DNA of 64,000 nucleotides from Cyanidioschyzon merolae (GCA_000091205.1 AP006489.2), one strand, 5' to 3'; numbered from the stretch's first letter, positions 5,287-33,330 are shown. The notes: generated by a model from the sequence alone, not told the origin. Made by a program: numbers and translations.

Positions 5287-6372
5287 CGCAGCGTGCATGC
5301 GAAGACGCGCTCCCGTTGAGGCTTCCCTTTAGCAGAGGCGCGCTACAATGCTCTTTCGCTGTCGTTCCAAGGCGGTTGCCGCCGTCCAGCACTCCAGTTT
5401 GCAACCAGTCTCCGCTTTCGCTGATTCGACGATCGACGAGCCGTCGAGGAGCAAACCACGTGCATAGCCGTTCTGCGGCCTGGTCCAGCGTGACGCATCA
5501 TTCGAGAACACCGGTGATGATAATGGTGATATTCGTCGTCATTAGCGCACCGTAGGTCCGCAGCACCACCAAAGTGATACCCAGGGGTTTACCGCTCTCA
5601 ATGTTGTGCGTCGTTGTCGCGCGGCGGTACCTGCTGCTGCTGCTGCTGTTGCTGGTAACCGAGCGGTGGCGACGTGCTGACGGTATGTGTGCTGCGGTCG
5701 AGAATGCATGTGTGTGTTTGTGTCTGCACGCGTGGCTTCACACCAGGTGTGCTTCAGGAGACTCGAACCGTAACGCGTCGTGCAGCGCTGCGGACGGCAT
5801 CACTTGGGAATGAGCTGCTTGCGAAATGCATCCAACCTGGCAGCGCTGTAGTTGCCTCAGTGACTACCGGCTCTACGGACTCGGGGATGCAGAGGCAACG
5901 CAGGGGCAACTGCGGCTTGTGTGTGCCAAGGATGCATGTGCACTGTCGCTTGCGTTCGAAGCGTCAGTTCGCGTCTCGGCCATGTTCGAGAATGTTTTTG
6001 GTACAAGGACGGGGATCGTTGCCGATGATGATCATCGTCCGGCGTACGAATGCGTCCGCTGACCATGACCCCTTGACCGCGCATGCTGCACTGCGCATTC
6101 CAGGTGAACGTGCTGGAGGCAACGCAGAGAGGCTCGCGACCTGGGGACGGCACCGGAGCCTTGACGACTGGTTGATCCTGCGCTAGCAGCACGGAAGTGT
6201 GCACAGTGAGCGGTGCCAGTGCAGGCCGGCGCACGAGAAACAGCAGGACCTGGTGGCACAACTCGGTTCGAACTGCGCAGCGCTTGCTGCAGGAGCTTGT
6301 TCGGTATCGGAAAGCTGTGTTCGGCGATGCTGTTCACGGCCACACGGGTGGAGAACGGTCGGGGCTTTTGCC

Positions 6373-7727
6373 TTTGTCAAACTAAAATGCGTAACTGACC
6401 TGGTCGCTCTACTCATGTCTTGTGATTATGTTTCCGAACGTTTCATGGGTGTTTAGCCTCGGCATTCGATTTGCAGTCGCAAGGGATGCCGCTTTCATGC
6501 GTCGTTCTAGGATCCGCGGTCGTCGTTTCGGAGTGAGATTCTCGATGCTTTGCTGCTGGAATTCGGAACGATTCCAGAGTGAGGATGAGTCGCGAGGCAG
6601 TGGAACACGACTACGCAACACACGCGATACCATTGTGGTATTCGTATGTACCGGCAACCAGGCTACTCCTTTGCTTGTGTGCGTCGCATGCGCAGATCAC
6701 ACACAGGATTCATGTCTTCTATCGTTCTGTGTTCAGGCATTACGCGGACGAAGCAGTATGCGCTGTTGGATTGGCGAGCAAAAACACTCCATGTCGGGCG
6801 CTGAAACCTCGTTGACGAGTTCATGGCGAATGCTCACTGAACTTGTCCCGTCAACACATCGATCTCATTCGAAACACACACGTCCTACGCTCTGTGTATG
6901 GAGCCATCGACGACACAGCATTCGACAGCAGCATGACACCGGTCACGGGATATGCTCCCAGACGCTGTTGTCTCTTCCGTTTCGATCGAAAAAGGGTCCT
7001 GGAGTCGGAATGCTATGATCACAGCGATCGCTTTCTGCGGAGAATGCTTCGCGACTGAGAAAGAAGCGCGCGTTGCCGGATCGAAGGTTCTCGACTTGAT
7101 CTCGAGCCTCGGTTTCCCTCTCGGTACTTGTTTCATTTCAGAGAGCAACGCTCAGCACAAATCCGCTTGTAGAAAATCGAAAAACAAGCGTTCACGCGCC
7201 TAGAGAGCAGCGTACGAGGTCAAGGCATTGCCCCGAAGAAGCCAGCGGTATCAGGGAACTGCAGTGGGCACGTCAACTGAGGAGCGCATCGCGAGGAGCC
7301 TTCTGTACCCGTCAAGGGCATGGGCTGAGCGATACGGTGAGCGTTCACGCTCTGCAGAGTGGCGCTGCCACCAGGCGGAAATTTGCCGGAGACATGCATT
7401 CGAGTGCCTGACCAAAGTCAAGTGTCGCCGCTGCGAAGCGCGCACCGAGGCTGTTTCCGACAAGTACGAAACCGAGAAGCGAAGCGTGATTCGCGACTTG
7501 AGCCTGTGGACATCGTGCGTCGACACCAGCCGAAGCCCGTGATACCCGGACTTGGAAGCTGTTGTTGTTGTTGTTGTCGTCGTCGTCATGCAGTGACTAC
7601 TGAAAACAGAGCTGGCGAGACGAACACGATCCGCGTACGTAAACGCCGGAAATAAAAGAGGGAATATGCGGCAGTTGCAGACATAGCTTTCAACAACCGG
7701 TATTCATGAGAATGAAGAGAGACCCGA
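6373..7727 (+). mobile_element. Family-A IS607-like element, copy A1 (degenerate serine recombinase + truncated TnpB/Fanzor-like gene, non-coding 3' tail)
   Basis: About 99% identical to 23822..25170, with unrelated flanks. Frame of 6422..7018, nt ~6683-6748: VACADHTQDSCLLSFCVQALRG aligns to the resolvase N-terminus [22 protein letters not shown]. At ~6890: AIDDTAFDSS, in the position of the resolvase LDRLGR motif. In 7228..7542: CLTKVKCRRCEARTE...RDLSL, homologous to the A3 zinc-finger/RuvC-III segment. Many stop codons; no intact ORF. Confidence 0.6.
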
Positions 7728-7839
7728 CCCTTTTGCGAGTTCGCTCGATATACAGGACCTGTCCTATTTCTAGGCTGACACGGGTACGATGTAGCTCGAT
7801 CCTAGTCCTTGTGGTAAAGCAGAGCCGGCGTTACCGGTT

Positions 7840-9330
7840 TTAGTTTACATCAGTACAAGTCGCTTTGATTTCATTGGGCGGGGCCAGCGAAACGTATTGC
7901 AATCCGAAAACGCCCAGCAAATAACTCAGCACAGCAAACAGGAGCGCGATGGCTGCCAGATCTCCCAGGGAAGGTATACCGCCAAAGGCAGCTCGCCAGC
8001 CAAGCCCACCCCCGTCCTGCTGCTTGCGTCGATACAGTACATACAAACTAAGGATGATGAATAAGAGAACCGCAATCCGATTGGCATACTTCAGGCCCAG
8101 TGGCGGTCGATAGGCCGGTACTCGATAGACCGTCGCCATCGGACGATATATGAGTTCGTCTCGGATCCGCGCCGCCACGGTGAGAGCGTGCTCCACTGCA
8201 GCGACAGTCTCAGCATACGACGGATCACAGGGGTCTACGGAGCTCGCGATCGCCTCGCAGTACTCCGTGAAGATGGTCAGTACTGCGGGCATGTCGCGGG
8301 CGCGGAGCACGAGCTTCGCTGTTTGGCCGCGACGAAGCTTGACGCGTCGAACGAATACATCGGCGTTATTGTAGCAAAGCGCAAGCGTGGCTATCGCCAT
8401 GACTTGGGGAATCGCCACAAAATAAAATACAGATTCCGACCGCACCTGCGACATATACTGAAGACAATCGGGTACGTGCCGAAGCGCGTCGGTGACCATG
8501 GCGTTCAGGCACTCGACGGCGACACGGCGGTGTTCAGGTCGGGCTAGATCGGCGAGTTCCATGTCCTTGCCAAACCTACCCCATATCTCCTGAGGCCAAA
8601 ATGTGCGTCCATCACGTTGGTCTTCCAGATAGTCCCGGATAATATTGGTTTTCTGCAGGAAAAGACCCATAGAGTTCGCTAACGCATCAGCAAGCTTGCT
8701 CTCTACGAATACTTCCCGTGACTCGTACCCGGAAGCAGCGAACATGGCACTCAACCCAATACCCACCAAACCAGCAACGTAGTGGCAGTACAAGTCGTAG
8801 TCCGCAATGGTCGCACATGCCTTGTGATGAATGTGCTGAGCCATACCGTCACCCATACAACGGGTAATATCCGTTATGATCTCTCGATAAGCAGGTTTCA
8901 GCTCATGGAAACAACCAAGCACTCGGGGAAACTCTTCCAACAGCTTCCGCTCGTCCGCGCTGCCGATATCGTGCACAGCGTAGCTGTTGCCCTGCAGGTG
9001 CGTGTACAACTCTTGACACAGCCGCATCCGCAACGTTGCGTCAACGCTCGTGTCGTCCTCTATCGTGTCCAAGGCGCGTAGAATAAGGTAAAATATACAT
9101 ACCGGGTCGCGAAGTTCTGAATCCAGCTCCATGATCACCAGCGCGAACGAACGAGACACTCTCCGGAGGTACTCGTAACAGAAGCGCCAGTCGGCGATGC
9201 GCTCAGCATCGCCCACCCGCTGCCGTAAACCCTCTTCCTGTACGTTTACTGCCTTTCTACTCTTCTCACGATACTTGACTAACGCCCATAACTCATCAGG
9301 ATGGCATAAAACCGTGCGTAACGCGCCCAT
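7840..9330 (-). CDS. Squalene synthase (farnesyl-diphosphate farnesyltransferase)
   Basis: 496 aa. RVSRSFALVIMELDSELRDPVCIFYLILRALDTIEDD and MGLFLQKTNIIRDYLEDQRDGRTFWPQEIW are near-identical to conserved SQS motifs. C-terminal TM helix present. Confidence 0.85.
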   Translation of the reverse strand: MGALRTVLCHPDELWALVKYREKSRKAVNVQEEGLRQRVGDAERIADWRFCYEYLRRVSRSFALVIMELDSELRDPVCIFYLILRALDTIEDDTSVDATLRMRLCQELYTHLQGNSYAVHDIGSADERKLLEEFPRVLGCFHELKPAYREIITDITRCMGDGMAQHIHHKACATIADYDLYCHYVAGLVGIGLSAMFAASGYESREVFVESKLADALANSMGLFLQKTNIIRDYLEDQRDGRTFWPQEIWGRFGKDMELADLARPEHRRVAVECLNAMVTDALRHVPDCLQYMSQVRSESVFYFVAIPQVMAIATLALCYNNADVFVRRVKLRRGQTAKLVLRARDMPAVLTIFTEYCEAIASSVDPCDPSYAETVAAVEHALTVAARIRDELIYRPMATVYRVPAYRPPLGLKYANRIAVLLFIILSLYVLYRRKQQDGGGLGWRAAFGGIPSLGDLAAIALLFAVLSYLLGVFGLQYVSLAPPNEIKATCTDVN

Positions 9331-9473
9331 CGAGTGCTAAAGAAGCAGGCACCTACGAACAAGGCACACGAAAGAAGACCAGCAATCCACGCTGTTCGCG
9401 CATCGCGCAATGGATGGCGTACAACAGCGCGCTGCAGCGCCCTGCGTGTCCATGCGACGTGCGACGTGCGTCG

Positions 9474-9515
9474 TACGTCGTGCGTGTGCGTGTGCGTGTG
9501 CGTGTGTTCGAATCG
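9474..9515. repeat. (GTGCGT)n microsatellite
   Basis: gtgcgtgtgcgtgtgcgtgtgcgtgtg, immediately upstream of the squalene synthase start. Confidence 0.8.
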
Positions 9516-9619
9516 GCGCACTGGACGCGCCTTGCCGCGCAGACGCATCGCAGGTGCCATGCGTGGCGCTGTTTTCGGCGGCAGGCGATCGAATTCGCGA
9601 TGCCACAGGTATCCCAGTG

Positions 9620-11050
9620 CGGATCGTAGCTGCATTGTATAGAGGCTATGCATTTCTATTCGTTACTGGACAGCGCAAAATGGACTGCATGAATGCCTCA
9701 GGTCAGTCATAGCACAGTGCGCAGATGGCTGAGGAACACTGAAAGACAGCAAGCGAGAACTGTATGCGCTCTGCGCCAAGAACTGGTATTGTGAAAGGCT
9801 CTAGTGGTCTATGGTAGAAAAACGAACTGTTGATTATCTTCCATGGAAGGCAAAATCGAAGATTGTAGTTACCACGGGCGTCTCTGCTTCTCAACAGCTC
9901 ATTCATTTGGTCCTGCAAGCACTGAGATACAGTTGCAGAAAAAGAGTACCGGTTGAAGCATGGTGGTTTTTCACGGAAATCGCACAGAGAGGCTTCCTGG
10001 AAATTGGGAATCTGTATGAAGCAGAGGAACGTCGGTTTGTTTTTCCAGTTAATGATACTGTGTTCGGATGAAACAGTCGTAGCGTCTATGCGTATTCGTG
10101 GAGCATGGATCCCGTCGTAGGTATGCACGATCGAACTCGAAGAGAACGGGGACATCATCATCGGTTCTAGGTGCAGTGGATTCATTTTTGGCGGCCTCAG
10201 CTTTGGCTCCTAGAGAAGGTTCGCGCATCAGCACAAACCACTTTGTCGAATTATCGAAGAATTTTGCCCTGACGTCTGAGAATGTCCCTCTGTTGCACAT
10301 CGTGCCACTTCACTCTTTCCCTTGCGTTTGGGCTTTTCCCGATTCTATCGGGGAGTAGAGCTGCTTTTCATTCCTTCATACTGAGCGTGATTGAATCCCG
10401 TTGAGGGAGTCGTTTCTATCGTGAATTGTGCGGATCGCTGCACTGGGTGGATCGCCGTAGCTCTGAACATGTGCTAACATACCGCGGCACGTTAGCTCTG
10501 TCTTCCACAAGTCCTTCTCGCTCTGGAAAAGTGCTCACCTATGGGCATGAATGAGTGCATTCATTTGAAGAAATAAATAATCTGAGGGATGCGCTGTAGA
10601 ATGCACTTCAGAAGATCGAGTTGGAGAGACGGCAGCGGAGCGCCTCGGCGCTAGAGGAGCACGGACAGCTGACAGACCACCGAATGGCACCGAGGGCAAG
10701 CGTTGGAGGACTCCTCGAAAATGCGGGTTTAACCAGCGGGAATCAACGCATGGAATGCGTGAACCGAGAGACTTCAACGCCGTGATCAATATCAGAAGAT
10801 ATGCGGTGCGGAGGATGAGACCCGAGGAGCCGCTGCAAACCAACTTTGGGGAGCAGCCTATGAAGCTCGAAGCGTACAAGGAGAAGCTGAAGCCGGTAGC
10901 ACACGGCCCGTCAACGAAAATGTCCGGAGGCTTCTACGGTTCTGTATCCGTGTACCCGGCATGGTCTTGCCACATGTATCGTTTCATTCAACATATTTGT
11001 ACACCTTAGAATAACATTGAACACATCGTGTGCGGACACCGGACTCGGCG
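9620..11050 (+). mobile_element. Family-B IS607-like element, copy B1 (serine-recombinase-like N-terminus + TnpB/Fanzor-like RuvC-III remnant)
   Basis: ORF 9811..10071 contains KIVVTTGVSASQQLIHLVLQALRYS, which aligns to resolvase [22 protein letters not shown] with the catalytic Ser retained. Later segments are ...VELLFIPSY (VdPaYTS-like) and RDFNAVINIRRYAV at 10767..10793 (TnpB RuvC-III DRDxNAAxNI). Homologous over its full length to 25415..26920 and, reverse-complemented, to 32600..33330. Confidence 0.5.
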
Positions 11051-11288
11051 CTACCAGCGCCTGAGCGGCGCAGTGCCTCCTGGCCAAGCACACGGGAACA
11101 AGCGGTCAAGTTCTCATAACTGCGCATCGGCTATTTTTATGAACTGAAGTCTCACTGTCTTGGACTACATAGAGCTGCACTTCTGTCGACGAACGCGCAC
11201 GAGATCCTGTGCCCAGCGCTTTGTCTTAACAAGACTGGCGTCTGCCGCTCGAGGGCTCCGTACCCGCAGACCGCGCTCGTGACACCTT

Positions 11289-23821: not shown

Positions 23822-25170
23822 TGTCAAACTAAAATGCGTAACTGACCTGGTCGCTCTACTCATGTCTTGTGATTATGTTTCCGAACGTTTCATGGGTGTT
23901 TAGCCTCGGCATTCGATTTGCAGTCGCAAGGGATGCCGCTTTCATGCGTCGTTCTAGGATCCGCGGTCGTCGTTTCGGAGTGAGATTCTCGATGCTTTGC
24001 TGCTGGAATTCGGAACGATTCCAGAGTGAAGATGAGTCGCGAGGCAGTGGAACACGACTACGCAACACACGCGATACCATTGTGGTATTCGTATGTACCG
24101 GCAACCAGGCTACTCCTTTGCTTGTGTGCGTCGCATGCGCAGATCACACACAGGATTCATGTCTTCTATCGTTCTGTGTTCAGGCATTACGCGGACGAAG
24201 CAGTATGCGCTGTTGGATTGGCGAGCAAAAACACTCCATGTCGGGCGCTGAAACCTCGTTGACGAGTTCATGGCGAATGCTCACTGAACTTGTCCCGTCA
24301 ACACATCGATCTCATTCGAAACACACAAGTCCTACGCCCTGTGTATGGAGCCATCGACGACACAGCATTCGACAGCAGCATGACACCGGTCACGGGATAT
24401 GCTCCCAGACGCTGTTGTCTCTTCCGTTTCGATCGAAAAAGGGTCCTGGAGTCGGAATGCTATGATCACAGCGATCGCTTTCTGCGGAGAATGCTTCGCG
24501 ACTGAGAAAGAAGCGCGCGTTGCCGGATCGAAGGTTCTCGACTTGATCTCGAGCCTCGGTTTCCCTCTCGGTACTTGTTTCATCTCCGAGAGCAACGCTC
24601 AGCACAAAGCCGCTTGTAGAAAATCGAAAAACAAGCGTTCACGCGCCTAGAGAGCAGCGTACGAGGTCAAGGCATTGCCCCGAAGAAGCCAGCGGTATCA
24701 GGGAACTGCAGTGGGCACGTCAACTGAGGAGCGCATCGCGAGGAGCCTTCTGTACCCGTCAAGGGCATGGGCTGAGCGATACGGTGAGCGTTCACGCTCT
24801 GCAGAGTGGCGCTGCCACCAGGCGGAAATTTGCCGGAGACATGCATTCGAGTGCCTGACCAAAGTCAAGTGTCGCCGCTGCGAAGCGCGCACCGAGGCTG
24901 TTTCCGACAAGTACGAAACCGAAAAGCGAAGCGTGATTCGCGACTTGAGCCTGTGGACATCGTGCGTCGACACCAGCCGAAGCCCGTGATACCCGGACTT
25001 GGAAGCTGTTGTTGTTGTTGTCGTCGTCGTCATGCAGTGACTACTGGAAACAGAGCTGGCGAGACGAACACGATCCGCGTACGTAAACGCCGGAAATAAA
25101 AGAGGGAATATGCGGCAGTTGCAGACATAGCTTTCAACAACCGGTATTCATGAGAATGAAAAGAGACCCA
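23822..25170 (+). mobile_element. Family-A IS607-like element, copy A2
   Basis: About 99% identical to A1 (6373..7727) over about 1.35 kb. The same start (tgtcaaactaaaatgcgtaactgacc) and end (...ggtattcatgagaatgaa(a/g)agagaccc) with unrelated flanks. The ORF differences between copies are non-synonymous and random, so the element is non-coding. Confidence 0.6.
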
Positions 25171-25414
25171 AACTTTAGGCTGTACACCCGTGTTCGAGTA
25201 CCTGCTCCATGATATCACGAGATACGTGTATTCTCTACATCGAAGAAGGCACACAACGGTTTACGAGCCATGAAGCATGAAACGAGATCGTGCGTTCGGC
25301 GGAATCGTACATATTGCTTTAGTCTTTCAACGCAACGATATTGCATATCCGAATCATGTCATCGAATGCTTTTTCGCGGAGTATATCAAGAGATCGAAAT
25401 CACGATGCAATGCA

Positions 25415-26920
25415 CCATACAGATCGTAGACGAATTACCAATAAAACATATGCGTTACAGAACAGTGCAACGAGGACTGCATCCCTCCTTCTGTTCAGTT
25501 ATACCACAGGACGCAGATGAGAGAAGAACACAGAAAGAAACAAGTATATTTGCTCCGGCCCCAAAACTGGTATTCTTAACGTGTGCTTGCTGTAAATGGT
25601 AGAGAACAAGCAGTTGAGCACCTTTTACGGAAGGCAAAAGCAACGACACTAGCTACCACCGGCGCCTCTGTTTCTCTACAGCTTGTTCGTGTGGCACTGA
25701 AAACACTGGGATAGAGTCGCAGAAAAAGGGTGCTAGTTCATGAATGGCCATTTTCCATAGGAACCACGACTACAGCGTTCCTGGAACGTCGCAATTGGTA
25801 TTAGGGACCGAAAAGGCGACCTGTTTTCATCAGTAGATGACACTTGCTTCGGCCGAAACGGTCGCAGCGGCTATGGGTATTTGCGGAGCACGGAGCCCGT
25901 GGTATGTACAATCGAACTCCAAGAGGACTAAGACATCATTATCTGTTCGACCTGCATTGGATACATTTGGCGGCATCAGTTTCCCCCGTAGAGAAAGCTC
26001 ATACTACAGCACCAACCACTGTGTCGAATTATTGAAGACCTTTTCTCCTGAATGTCTCTTGACGCCCTTGTATTGAACGTTGCATTTCAACGTTCCGCTT
26101 GCGTTCGAGCTTTTGTCGATTCTATCTGGGTAGAGCTGCTTTTCGATCCTCCGTGCTTAGCGTGTTTCAACCCCATCGAACGAGTCTTTCGTATCCTGAT
26201 ACGTAATGATCGCTCCACTGGACGAAGCATCGAAGCTTTGAACACGCGGTGACATTCCGGGACACCTGTCGTCTTTCTTGTACAAGTGCTCCTCTCGCAG
26301 GGAACGCCCTCACATGAGGGCATGAACAAGTGCGTTCATTTTGAAGAAATAAAAAATCCAAGGGAAAGGTATCGAAATGGAACACGTGGATGCTGGATGC
26401 CCGACGTCGCCGGGTTCGGCGAAAAAAACGAAAAAAATCCTCTTCACGCCGACCAACGAGCGATAAAGCACAACTGACGAAGAATAAGGGCAAGAGGGCA
26501 GGTAAGCGAGCTCGGCTGGGCTTGCCCGATTTCAGGATGACGAGGCTGTGGTGCCCCTGAGGGCACGAGTTCCAGCAATCCTCGCATTGGTTCGTTCAAC
26601 CTCAGGCAATCACCGCGTAGACTTCGTGAGCCCGGACTTTAACGCTGTTCTTAATATCACAAGATGTACAGTGCTGAAGACGAGACTCGAGGAGCTGATG
26701 CGAGCCAGCTTGGTGTGGCAGCCTCGAATACTCGACGTATCCAAGAAGACCTGAAACCGATAGCAGGCGGCCGGTCGGAAAAAAAAGCCGGCAGGCATTT
26801 GGACGTCGCCATACGTTCGCCCTACATGTTCGTGAGCGTTTGTTCGTTTCCGAGACAATGCACTCCCAGTCTCAACACAAGTCGTGCGCTTGGAACAGGG
26901 TTTTTTTTCAAGTAGAGAAA
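25415..26920 (+). mobile_element. Family-B IS607-like element, copy B2
   Basis: DNA homologous to B1 along its length. KAKATTLATTGASVSLQLVRVALKTLG corresponds to the serine-recombinase motif. WVELLFDPPCLAC is a VdP..C..C zinc-finger-like segment. GNHRVDFVSPDFNAVLNITRC at 26632..26658 is RuvC-III-like. The 3' tail is homologous to the B1 and B3 tails. Confidence 0.5.
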
Positions 26921-30734: not shown

Positions 30735-31299
30735 GAGCTCCCGAAGTGCGCAGCGCTGTCGGTGCGACGAGCTTCACTGCACGTTCAAGGCAAAACGGTT
30801 GAACTGTGGCGCAACGCCCTACCGGTAGCGGTTTGAAACCGGGGCATCCAGGTGGCCCGATTTGGCTTGACCTTTTCTGTCAGGTTGATACAATGATTTA
30901 TCATAAATGTCAGGCTTTGTTTCAGCTGCGTTGCCTGACGGCTGAATTTGGGATGATTGCCACGACATGGCCGGTGCGCTGCTCAATGAGAGAGAACTCA
31001 TTCGCGACCAATGCGTTTCAAAGGCAGCGGCGCTAGCGCCTGTGGAAAACGCTACCCCCGAACGAGTCACGAGAGGGATCGACGGAGGCTCCGTATTATC
31101 CTGTGAGAATGCACTAAAGTCGGCGGAACGTAGCGGTGTCGAAAGAGGAAGGCTGGTGTTGGCCCTGGACAGCGGTACCAACTGCGCAGCTGAGAGACGA
31201 CGGCTGGAGTCGTCGATTTGGCAACGTAGGAGTAAACCTGCGCGCATGGTAGAATCAGCGACCAGAACCACGTCCAACTGAATGGGAACACTGAAGTCT

Positions 31300-32560
31300 T
31301 TGTTCTGTTTCTGCTTGTCGATTTTCCCGGTGTTTTTTGGTGTCGACCCTGCACTTTTGGAAGTGAAGCAAGAAAGGCACACAGCTTACCAGTTAGTTTA
31401 CGTTTCCCGGTTATGTTTTTGACGTGACTCGTTTCGCGCTTTGCCGCTGGAACTCGTGACATCCTGGAACAACGCTGCGCAAAACTACCAGAATCATCAT
31501 TCCATGCTCATGCACGAGCCTCCACGGTTCACCTTCGCTTTCCAAGTAGCATACGCAAATCACGCAGTGTTCAAGTATTTGATCTTTGTGTTTCACTGCA
31601 AATCGTGGGCGCTTCAATTCGTGTCGCTGGACTGAAGATGACCAGTACACGATATCGTTGATTGAAGACCTTTTCACATGCTCATGCCGAAAGTTCATTG
31701 AACTGTTCGAGTCGAACAATGAACTCTGCTCGAAAGACAAATCCCTCTCTATTTCCGGTCGTCGAAGGATCAGCATTCGACTGCAGCATGATACCGCTGA
31801 CGGGATATGATCCCAGAGGCGCCGGTCTCTTCCGTTCACAAACGGAACAGCGTCTTGGACTTAGGCTTTCGCGATGGCAACGATCGCTTCCAGTAGAGAC
31901 ATCGTCATCGCTTGCCACAGAGGGAGCGTAGGCGGATCGAGATTTCTCGACCCGTCCTCCAGCACAGGATTTTTTTCCGATACCCGTTTCATCATGGATA
32001 CCATCGCGTTTCACAAATCCTGTATTGACTAGCACGGCGGATGCCTGTACGTCCAGCTGGCAGCTGCGTATTCGCCGAGGAGATCACCTACGCGAAGCTC
32101 GTGTTTGTAGATTGCAGCGCTGGACGCGGAAACGGAGTGCATCGAGGAAAGGTATCTGTACTACGCCAGGTCATGCACCGAGCGATGAAGCACGCTTTTT
32201 CGCGCTACAGGTCTGCTCTCGAAGGAGGTGTTGTAGTGGACATACGGGAGCTCCTGATCACAGACAAGTGTCCCAGCTGCAAATGGCGTACCGAATCCGC
32301 ATGCAGAGAAGATCACCATCGCAAGCGAAGCGTAGGTCGTAACCGCAGCCTATGAGTGGAATGTCGTAGAGAACTTGCGGAAGCAGCGGACTCGGGACTT
32401 GAACGCCGCATTCAGTGTCGTTCGACTGCCGAAACCCGGCCTGACGAGAAACGCGAGACCGGCATATTGCAAGGCGCGAACAAGATAGAGGAGAAGGTAG
32501 CAGCGGTTTAGACAACCCGTAAAAGTTGGTATTCATCATGGTGAGAAGAGACCCAAACGT
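31300..32560 (+). mobile_element. Family-A IS607-like element, diverged copy A3 (best-preserved TnpB C-terminal motifs)
   Basis: DNA homologous to A1 throughout, about 75-80% identical. ORF 32041..32355 reads ITYAKLVFVDCSAGRGNGVHRGKVSVLRQVMHRAMKHAFSRYRSALEGGVVVDIRELLITDKCPSCKW. This corresponds to TnpB RuvC-II (ivfEdLnvkgM...WgeFrrqLeYKAew.Gk.vv.vDp.yTSQ.CS.CG). RDLNAAFSVV at 32393..32422 is RuvC-III RDxNAAxNI. The end motif ggtattcatcatggtgagaagagaccc is at ~32527. Confidence 0.6.
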
Positions 32561-32599
32561 TTGCGTGTACGCATGTGGTAGGTTTCCTGACCCGTTCTC

Positions 32600-33330
32600 A
32601 TCTGACATGGATGCAGAAGAACCGTGGCCTTCTCGCAGGTATGCGACAGCAACTGCGCGTGCTAGCGGTCCAGCTTACTTGTCCCGATCTCACACGAGAA
32701 ACAGTTGATCAACGGAAGGAAAATCTCTCGCGTCCGTACAAGGTAAATATATGCAACCACGCAGAGGACGCCTCCAAGCTTTTTTTTCTGAACTGGCCGA
32801 CCGCTATCGGTTTCAACTTATCCAGGCATCACTTTGAACCAGAGAGGTTGTCCCACGAAGTTTACTCGCCTCAGATCCTCGGGTCTCATCTTGAGCACTG
32901 CACATCGTCTGGTATTCATAGCAGCGTTAAAGTCTCGGTTCACGAACTCTATGCGGTGATCGCCTCTGGTTGAACTCACCAATGCGGGGATTGTTAGAAC
33001 TCGCGCCCTCTGTGCCACTAGAGTCTTCTGAGCGTCCCGTCGGGGAAACAGCTTGTCTCGTCTATCTCCCCTGTTCTTCTGCTTCTTCTTTTTCGTCACT
33101 TGCTCTGCTTCGCTCCATGGTCGGCAAGAAGAAGATTTTCGTCGAGTTTTTGTCGACCCTGGTAATGAAGGGCCCTCCAGGATTCCCTACTTCCATGTCC
33201 ATCCCTTTCCCTAGAGTTTTTTATGTTTGAACTTGAACGCATTCGATCCCGTCTATTATAAACCGCGAAAAAGCATTTGATGACACCCACCTTCACGTGG
33301 AACACAACTGAGGTAAAAGTCTGCATGCGT
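32600..33330 (-). mobile_element. Family-B element, truncated copy B3 (minus strand), abutting A3 tail-to-tail
   Basis: ORF 32818..33099(-) contains GDHRIEFVNRDFNAAMNTRRCAVLKMRPEDL (RuvC-III-like, 32911..32937). The 3' tail (32600-32820) reverse-complemented is homologous to the B1 and B2 tails (gaaaccgatagcggtcggcc...). The 5' part is lost to truncation before the Utp6-like gene. Confidence 0.45.

Follow-up and report, generated by a model that had tools for sequence, protein, structure and literature searches.

The 64-kb window, the whole stretch of DNA analyzed here, has the character of nuclear DNA from an intron-poor eukaryote (~55% G+C). Its long unbroken open reading frames (ORFs) correspond to an Rpb1-type RNA polymerase subunit, SMC, synoviolin, a U3-associated protein, LETM1, EF-G and a squalene/phytoene-synthase-like protein. 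No tRNA was found in the window, and Rfam 15 gave no match in it at the gathering threshold. A scan for bacterial promoters and terminators, which is irrelevant to a eukaryote, returned nothing. The locus is also present on several JGI metagenome contigs at ~98% identity. Self-comparison of the window resolves two repeat families, A (five ~1.4-kb copies) and B (three copies). The copies of family A, the features of A1 and the gene that faces A1 are arranged as follows.

6375..7783, plus strand: A1, a putative decayed Fanzor1-like pseudogene or element of family A (~1.4 kb), assigned by family homology and a C-terminal profile
7423..7518, plus strand: zinc-ribbon (TNB) remnant of A1; CRRC is kept, and the second CxxC (CMEC) is present only in the family consensus
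7546..7575, plus strand: RuvC-III remnant of A1 (P-D-L-E-A-V-V-V-V), overrun by a microsatellite
7560..7589, plus strand: microsatellite inside the A1 RuvC-III remnant, (TGT)6 and then CGT repeats
7576..7734, plus strand: putative former C-terminal coding tail of the A-type protein, with the stop equivalent at 7732-7734
7735..7783, plus strand: short 3' non-coding end of A1, after the stop equivalent
7840-9330, minus strand: squalene-synthase-like gene, convergent with A1
23822..25227, plus strand: A2, with an in-frame TAG retained at 25176-25178
~31271-32610, plus strand: A3, the best-preserved C-terminal remnant (KCPSC ... RDLNAAFSV)
~46077-44697, minus strand: A4, by family A homology
~50883-49516, minus strand: A5, by family A homology

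The left end is common to all family A copies. On the right, the family homology of A1 extends to ~7783 and terminates in the motif CTGACAYGG, which has the form CTGACACGG in A1 (7775-7783). Identity among the A copies is 0.50 as far as ~7783 and 0.36 beyond it. The distance from the RuvC-III remnant to the end of the family homology is ~195-210 bp in each copy. The preliminary description, which regarded the tails as candidate omega-RNA scaffolds, let the elements run ~180-240 bp past RuvC-III; this length agrees with the boundaries determined here, but the A1 end at 7727 does not. The interval 7545-7727 starts at the A1 RuvC-III remnant and stops where the near-identity of A1 and A2 stops. 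The end of A1 is separated from the stop codon of the squalene-synthase-like gene by ~55 nt, and the neighbors of the other A copies are unrelated genes. A3, A4 and A5 are older copies with 57-60% identity to A1/A2. The near-identity of A1 and A2 covers one block.

6375..7725, plus strand: A1 block near-identical to A2 (23822-25169), 99.1% identity over 1351 bp

The near-identical block ends ~55 nt short of the family A right end, and the A2 sequence after the block resembles A3, A5 and A6, not A1. Because the identity stops inside older homology and the downstream sequence of A2 resembles that of the other copies, the block most likely reflects recent gene conversion between two old copies, which would account for the near-identity without selection on the tail. 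A still mobile A element, with A1 and A2 as products of a recent non-autonomous transposition and their ends, tail included, functionally intact, would also account for 99.1% identity over exactly 1351 bp and for the coincidence of the left edge of the block with the family left end. Mobility is nevertheless unlikely, given that the right edge lies within the older family homology and that A2 continues after the block with old-copy sequence, as expected if an existing copy was converted and not if a new one was inserted. Moreover, a search for terminal inverted repeats and target-site duplications revealed none, and the orthologous A1 is already present in other strains.

Profile comparison indicates that family A derives from a Fanzor1-like gene, i.e. 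a gene of the eukaryotic TnpB type. An in-register consensus of the A copies restores the pattern CxxC...CxxC...NRDLDAA. This consensus is matched by the Pfam family PF07282 (Cas12f1-like_TNB) with an E value of 1e-3, which is below the curated cut-off. Over ~100 columns, corresponding to the last ~110 residues, the C-terminal profile of A can be aligned with that of Fanzor1 (hhalign probability 90.9%, E 1.2e-6). The RuvC-III motif of family A is a weak match (RDLNAAFSV in A3 and NRDLDAA in the consensus), the RuvC-II region aligns by hhalign only, and RuvC-I was not detected in A. The segment AIDETAFD, ~214 codons upstream of RuvC-III, is an unproven candidate for a RuvC-I remnant, since a stitched A pseudo-protein matched only the C-terminal part of Fanzor1. 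The A profile alone had no match in the PDB, and Pfam searches with the raw three-frame translations of A1 and B1 yielded nothing useful. Among 5.8 billion proteins, no intact A-type relative was found, only fragments of the same decayed copies. Multiple stops and frameshifts occur in all copies, which are pseudogenes or deletion derivatives.

The tail of family A shows traces of the same reading frame. In A1, the microsatellite is polymorphic in length, with a 6-nt difference in the orthologous contigs L001-L003, which serve as the between-strain comparison for A1. Measured from the RuvC-III D codon, the TAG column that the copies share lies a multiple of three nucleotides away in five of the six A copies (183, 180, 165, 168 and 156 nt), a modest argument for frame conservation with a probability of ~11% by chance alone (binomial estimate). 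The TAG is kept in A2, A5 and A6, the ORF of A6 (P0156) ends exactly at it, and a C-terminal motif, GIHxxEKRPK(R)L, is common to the A copies. Since the stop equivalent of A1 is located at 7732-7734, 7545-7727 would lie wholly inside the ancestral A ORF, and we infer a coding origin for the whole A tail. The tail strings of A1 and A4 that had been paired in the preliminary description do align.

Family B is composed of a core, preceded in two copies by a separate unit.

9657-~10990, plus strand: B1, unit C and core, by self-comparison
9657..10547, plus strand: unit C (~890 bp), which precedes the core in B1 and B2 only and has 70% identity to 25449-26323
10548..10990, plus strand: B1 core, in which the 5' end and N-terminal codons are fused to the final ~85 codons plus a short 3' end
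10767..10795, plus strand: RuvC-III motif of B1 (RDFNAVINI)
10796..10937, plus strand: B1 tail, former C-terminal coding sequence, aligned to residues 263-304 of the 309-residue L004 fragment and including RPxxLxR
10938..10990, plus strand: B1 stretch after the stop equivalent (~10935-10937), in which B homology fades to background within ~50 nt
25449-~26860, plus strand: B2, unit C and core, by self-comparison
26324..26860, plus strand: B2 core, with the RuvC-III region at 26590-26709
33248-32767, minus strand: B3, by self-comparison; its core (32767..33248) lies tail-to-tail with A3

The RuvC-III motif reads PDFNAVLNI in B2 and NRDFNAAMNT in B3. The open peptide of B3 led to three metagenomic relatives (P0001-P0003), and an exhaustive search with P0002 returned 523 relatives, many of which are 600-700 amino acids long. 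A Fanzor1 profile built from 36 full-length relatives of B gave hmmsearch scores of 39, 24 and 35 bits for B3, B2 and B4, respectively. The same profile matches the solved Fanzor1 structures from Parasitella (9cf0; E 1.3e-16), Spizellomyces (8gkh; E 5e-10) and Guillardia (9cer; E 8e-5). These matches require the profile, as a phmmer search of the PDB with a single full-length relative gave no match. Because the profile of its relatives matches 9cf0, 8gkh and 9cer, family B is Fanzor1-derived. Like SpuFz1, PpFz1 and GtFz1 (PMC10432273, PMC11423790), the relatives of B are genuine Fanzor1 proteins; they contain RPDRxxKL..ETVVK at the N-terminus, GxDPG, DEFRT, NRDxNAAxNI and, at the C-terminus, RPxxLxR. 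Frame 1 of the L004 contig contains GADPG...N (RuvC-I), IDEFRTS (RuvC-II) and NRDFNAAMNI (RuvC-III), followed by 55 codons before the stop. The descent from a TnpB-like nuclease that had been proposed for the elements is thus borne out in the form of eukaryotic Fanzor1, by the match of the B profile to solved structures and by the hhalign probability of 91% for the A profile. The window contains no intact Fanzor.

The B core is an internally deleted mini-Fanzor1 that has lost ~530 codons. This unit of ~450-600 bp is common to B1-B3 and B4 (L005); B1 carries an extra ~70-nt deletion relative to the collinear B2, B3 and B4. L010 is a near-intact Fanzor1 gene, interrupted by one frameshift and a few in-frame stops, and its 5' end and start-codon region have their homolog in the left ~200 nt of the B cores. 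Positions 4-31 (RPDRxxKL..ETVVK) and 560-598 of the Fanzor1 profile lie 12 residues apart in one and the same frame of B3. Only profile positions 4-31 and ~552-598 are present in the B cores; RuvC-I and RuvC-II are missing, and residues 1-200 of the L004 fragment had no match in the B copies. Because the copies share the deletion junction, the mini-Fanzor1 multiplied after the deletion and then decayed. The copies are old, with identities of 60-70%. A ~330-bp 3' portion is kept in the mini-element, and its retention and subsequent multiplication would fit if this portion held cis-acting sequences, perhaps with an omega-RNA among them. Among candidate terminal inverted repeats of B, none was convincing (the best pair is 20 nt at 70%), and Pfam searches with minus-strand frames of the B consensus yielded nothing useful.

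The B tail matches the C-terminus of Fanzor1 codon for codon. In a tblastn search, B1 10767-10919 aligned to residues 254-304 of the L004 fragment, and B2 and B3 aligned likewise. The hhalign and hmmsearch matches extend past RuvC-III through RRCAVLKMRPEDLRR, which corresponds to R605, P606 and R611 (RPxxLxR), and these residues are invariant in all 36 full-length Fanzor1 proteins. The string quoted earlier for the B tail, gaaaccgatagc(a/g)g(g/t)cggcc, encodes KLKPIAGG, and relatives have KLEAVIGG and KLKLVVGG at this position. The string had been assigned to B1, B2 and B3; it is exact in B2 and B3 and differs at more than three positions in B1, although the B1 tail aligns. Alignment at the protein level thus shows that the B tail corresponds to the C-terminal ~47-55 codons of Fanzor1, followed by no more than ~50 nt. 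That the tails encode nothing, as had been stated, is true of today's pseudogenes only: the B tail retains the Fanzor1 C-terminus, and the A tail keeps its frame to the TAG. After the stop, the B copies resemble neither each other nor L010/L004 significantly (z≤2.6; the comparison of L010 with L004 gives 24).

Tail conservation does not exceed that of the rest of the element in either family. For independent A copies, the body has an identity of 0.56, against 0.50 for both 7594-7727 and 7727-7782. In the B cores, RuvC-III and RPxxLxR have identities of 0.75-0.80, against 0.61-0.69 for the rest of the tail, which is similar to the 5' part; the tail region is the least conserved 3' part of B. 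This comparison covers 4-6 independent copies of each family, so few that modest constraint, or a scaffold of only ~50-60 nt, could escape it. First, second and third codon positions are evenly affected by the differences among the B copies, a pattern indicative of neutral decay, and tblastx comparisons between copies revealed no preferred frame. Between-strain divergence is not reduced in the tails either. Relative to the orthologous contigs, the A1 tail has one substitution and the 6-nt microsatellite change in 183 nt, against a divergence of 1.0-1.3% in the body. For B1, between-strain divergence is 1.0-1.5% in the tail and 1.9-2.1% in the 5' part. The adjoining segment 7728-7839 has zero differences between strains. 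The tails had been described as conserved, but their similarity is homology, not constraint, and reflects neutral decay. Conservation of the tail no higher than in the remaining element is the outcome that the preliminary description itself had named as refuting its proposal.

A different pattern of substitution is seen between L010 and L004. Over the 150 codons to just past RuvC-III, the two sequences differ at 9, 7 and 39 first, second and third codon positions, respectively, a strong third-position bias. In the 49 tail codons, the corresponding counts are 13, 8 and 9, with no third-position bias. The protein tail thus seems to be weakly constrained in the L010/L004 clade. The third-position rate is slightly lower in the tail than upstream (0.18 versus 0.26; two sequences only, with small n), which is weakly compatible with a constraint at the nucleotide level.

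The tails have no distinctive predicted RNA structure. Fold z-scores are -1.5 (plus strand) and -0.4 (minus strand) for 7545-7727, -0.3 for 7571-7800 and -0.5 for the B1 tail. The RNAalifold consensus fold of six A tails has an energy of -4.55 kcal/mol with a covariation term of +0.11, and body windows of A fold better, with lower consensus energies than the tail. The covariation terms of the B consensus folds are 0 to +0.5. A long-range helix in the A tails seemed to beat column shuffles, but equal or stronger apparent significance was obtained in 22 of 22 control windows (11 windows along the A alignment, on both strands), which identifies this helix as an artefact of selection. In the terminal 75-140 nt of the individual A copies, z-scores range from -1.05 to +2, and there is no common stem-loop. 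An Rfam search of 6300-11100 at E<=10 returned only a chance rpsL-leader match outside the tails. Covariance analysis of the aligned tails, which the preliminary description had put forward as a check, gave no signal above other windows of the element; with neutral divergence of the copies, covariation between them is not expected to be informative. The proposal that the tails are conserved omega-RNA scaffolds thus finds no backing in excess conservation, fold stability, covariation or Rfam matches.

In the TnpB systems of IS200/IS605 and IS607 elements, e.g. ISDra2, the scaffold of the omega-RNA (reRNA) overlaps the 3' end of the nuclease ORF and the right end of the element, and the guide is derived from the flank. 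Unlike these prokaryotic elements, the window is eukaryotic, the protein is Fanzor1 and no curated RNA family is matched. The A and B tails occupy the 3' part of their elements, the end from which Fanzor and TnpB elements encode their omega-RNA (PMC10432273, PMC11423790). Fanzor1 omega-RNAs are 75-150 nt long, including a ~15-nt guide, and end just beyond the right end of the element (PMC10432273, PMC11423790), with a scaffold length of 60-135 nt (PMC11423790). Since TnpB and some Fanzors have scaffolds that extend into the 3' end of the ORF (PMC10432273), a coding origin of the tails is compatible with an RNA role. Projected onto the window, the last 60-135 nt of the elements would place the ancestral scaffold at ~7650-7783 in A1 and ~10855-10990 in B1, in partial overlap with the tails. 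By position, 7735-7783 is the likeliest site of the last part of the ancestral scaffold in A1. The tails thus lie in a suitable region, but with the family A end at ~7783, a scaffold of this length would overlap only part of 7545-7727. A better omega-RNA candidate for the L010/L004 clade is the segment beyond the stop codon, where the homology of the two sequences runs on for ~65 nt with a well-conserved core, CGCCACTACNGTACACNGCTGGC, and hairpins. A search for this segment in the B copies and the window gave chance words only.

Taken together, the A and B tails would be decayed Fanzor1 C-terminal coding sequences with short 3' ends that are decaying neutrally, rather than preserved guide-RNA genes, a reading to which we assign a probability of roughly 80%. 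The interval 7545-7727 would then represent the 3' end of a dead Fanzor1-like gene, beginning with a RuvC-III motif broken by the microsatellite and continuing with ~50-60 former C-terminal codons. A 1351-bp block that contains it would have been homogenized recently between the old copies A1 and A2 by gene conversion. Divergence from the three older A copies would be equal in the tail and the remainder of the element, or slightly greater in the tail. The B tails would be Fanzor1 C-terminal codons within a deleted mini-element that multiplied and then decayed. An ancestral omega-RNA probably overlapped the tails, and its scaffold would have decayed together with the nuclease ORF; there is no indication that a scaffold survives. 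The preliminary description was accurate on the repeats and the homology of the tails, and inaccurate on the right end, the lack of coding and the conservation. Likewise, the TnpB-like origin and the 3' position stand, but the step from conserved, non-coding sequence to RNA fails because the tails are former coding C-termini.

The closest precedent for a functional role of the tails is provided by the ghost loci of Spizellomyces punctatus, which are ~550-nt units bounded by inverted repeats that lack Fz and produce functional omega-RNAs (PMC10432273). The B core resembles them in its size of ~450-600 bp, its origin from Fanzor1, its lack of a functional nuclease, the retention of 5' and 3' portions and the deletion junction shared by several copies. 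Unlike the ghost loci, B has neither conserved inverted repeats nor a conserved 3' non-coding scaffold, and its copies are old, at 60-70% identity. By analogy, the tails could be functional omega-RNA genes of dead or deleted elements that serve an intact Fanzor1 elsewhere in trans. Their position is right for this role (PMC10432273, PMC11423790), the deletion derivative that forms the B core keeps both element ends and multiplied after the deletion, the near-intact L010 was found in a metagenome (3300005573) that also holds B4, and a long-range helix is weakly predicted in the A tails. Even so, functional omega-RNA genes are very unlikely. The tails show neither excess conservation nor reduced divergence between strains, and no structure signal, as the helix statistics are reproduced throughout the element on both strands. 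At 50-70% identity, the copies differ by far too much for a common scaffold. The 5.8 billion proteins include no intact A-type nuclease, the window lacks an intact Fanzor, and the ~65-nt post-stop stretch of L010/L004 is missing from the B copies and the window. It is highly doubtful that the mini-Fanzor1 of family B, perhaps together with the A tails, represents omega-RNA loci of the ghost type, i.e. non-autonomous elements whose survival would depend on supplying guide RNAs, or cis sequences of the right end, to an intact Fanzor1 elsewhere, with a scaffold overlapping the former C-terminal codons. That the tail is retained for a 3' UTR or terminator function in the convergent squalene-synthase-like gene is extremely improbable. 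The short distance between the A1 end and the stop codon of this gene and the lack of between-strain differences in 7728-7839 would favor it, but the invariant zone begins at 7728, outside 7545-7727, which itself contains a polymorphic microsatellite and a substitution between strains, and the other A copies do not adjoin this type of gene but unrelated ones.

The copies in the window differ from characterized Fanzor1 elements in being dead, by stops and frameshifts in A and by the ~530-residue internal deletion in B. They also lack detectable scaffold-like structure and retain only ~50 nt after the stop equivalent. The copies are new but decayed members of the Fanzor1 elements, which are already known. 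They illustrate that conservation 3' of a nuclease motif in repeats can reflect an unrecognized ORF end and gene conversion and is not in itself evidence of a guide RNA. The mini-Fanzor1 of family B would be a second, independent example of a derivative of the ghost-locus type after that of Spizellomyces. Transcripts from these ends, if shown, would be informative about how long omega-RNA genes persist after their nucleases are lost. The density of decayed Fanzor1 copies in the window is high, at ~8 copies per 64 kb from two lineages.

The core common to the B copies is a mini-Fanzor1 with an internal deletion, in which the 5′ end and the N-terminal RPDR..ETVVK codons are fused to the final ~85 codons. 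It occupies the following positions:

10548–10990, window, B core of B1
26324–26860, window, B core of B2
32767–33248 (−), window, B core of B3
701–1214, metagenome contig L005, B core of B4

The deletion junction is common to several of these cores, and the B core was therefore mobile after the deletion. The B core is similar to published ‘ghost loci’. Only in B1 and B2 is the core preceded on its 5′ side by a ~890-bp repeat unit, whose two copies are 70% identical. A search of all six frames of the unit returned no Pfam match, and no similarity to Fanzor1 was found.

9657–10547, window, ~890-bp unit ahead of the B1 core
25449–26323, window, ~890-bp unit ahead of the B2 core

Near-intact Fanzor1 homology is observed in two metagenome contigs:

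1–2410, L010
1–1020, L004

On L010 (21.9 kb), the Fanzor1 gene is disrupted across ~2.2 kb by a single frameshift and a small number of in-frame stop codons. The homology between L010 and L004 extends ~65 nt beyond the stop codon into a stretch that contains a conserved core (CGCCACTACNGTACACNGCTGGC) and hairpins, a plausible candidate for the omega-RNA scaffold or right end of the L010/L004 clade.

The most conserved stretch of family A, the decayed Fanzor1-like pseudogenes, is AIDETAFDxSMxPxTGY (~0.62 identity; 80% between A1 and A3). It lies ~214 codons 5′ of RuvC-III, the spacing expected of RuvC-I in Fanzor1; profile methods did not confirm a RuvC-I identity. The RuvC-III remnant itself contains a microsatellite that is expanded in both A1 and A2 and varies in length among A1, A2 and the orthologous contigs.

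6895–6995, window, best-conserved stretch (A1)
31771–31859, window, best-conserved stretch (A3)
7560–7589, window, (TGT)6 followed by a CGT repeat (A1)

A1 and A2 share a block of 99.1% identity (6375–7725 in A1, 23822–25169 in A2). It stops ~55 nt short of the family A right end, and past the block the two copies are only ~55% alike. This pattern is indicative of gene conversion between old, dispersed copies that lie 17 kb from each other.

The A and B copies are grouped in three intergenic regions:

6375–10990, window
23822–26860, window
31271–33248, window

A1 and B1 flank the squalene/phytoene-synthase-like gene, A2 and B2 are separated by ~220–245 bp, and the tail ends of A3 and B3 face each other across a ~160-bp gap. 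The grouping may reflect a target preference, or it may merely mean that few intergenic sites are tolerated.

7728–9330, window, squalene/phytoene-synthase-like CDS and 3′ flank

This region exhibits 0–1 differences in ~1600 nt from three orthologous metagenome contigs, synonymous sites of the CDS being likewise unchanged; divergence in the spacers and repeats on either side is 1–5%. Such invariance suggests either that the region was swept or recently exchanged, or that it is under very strong constraint.
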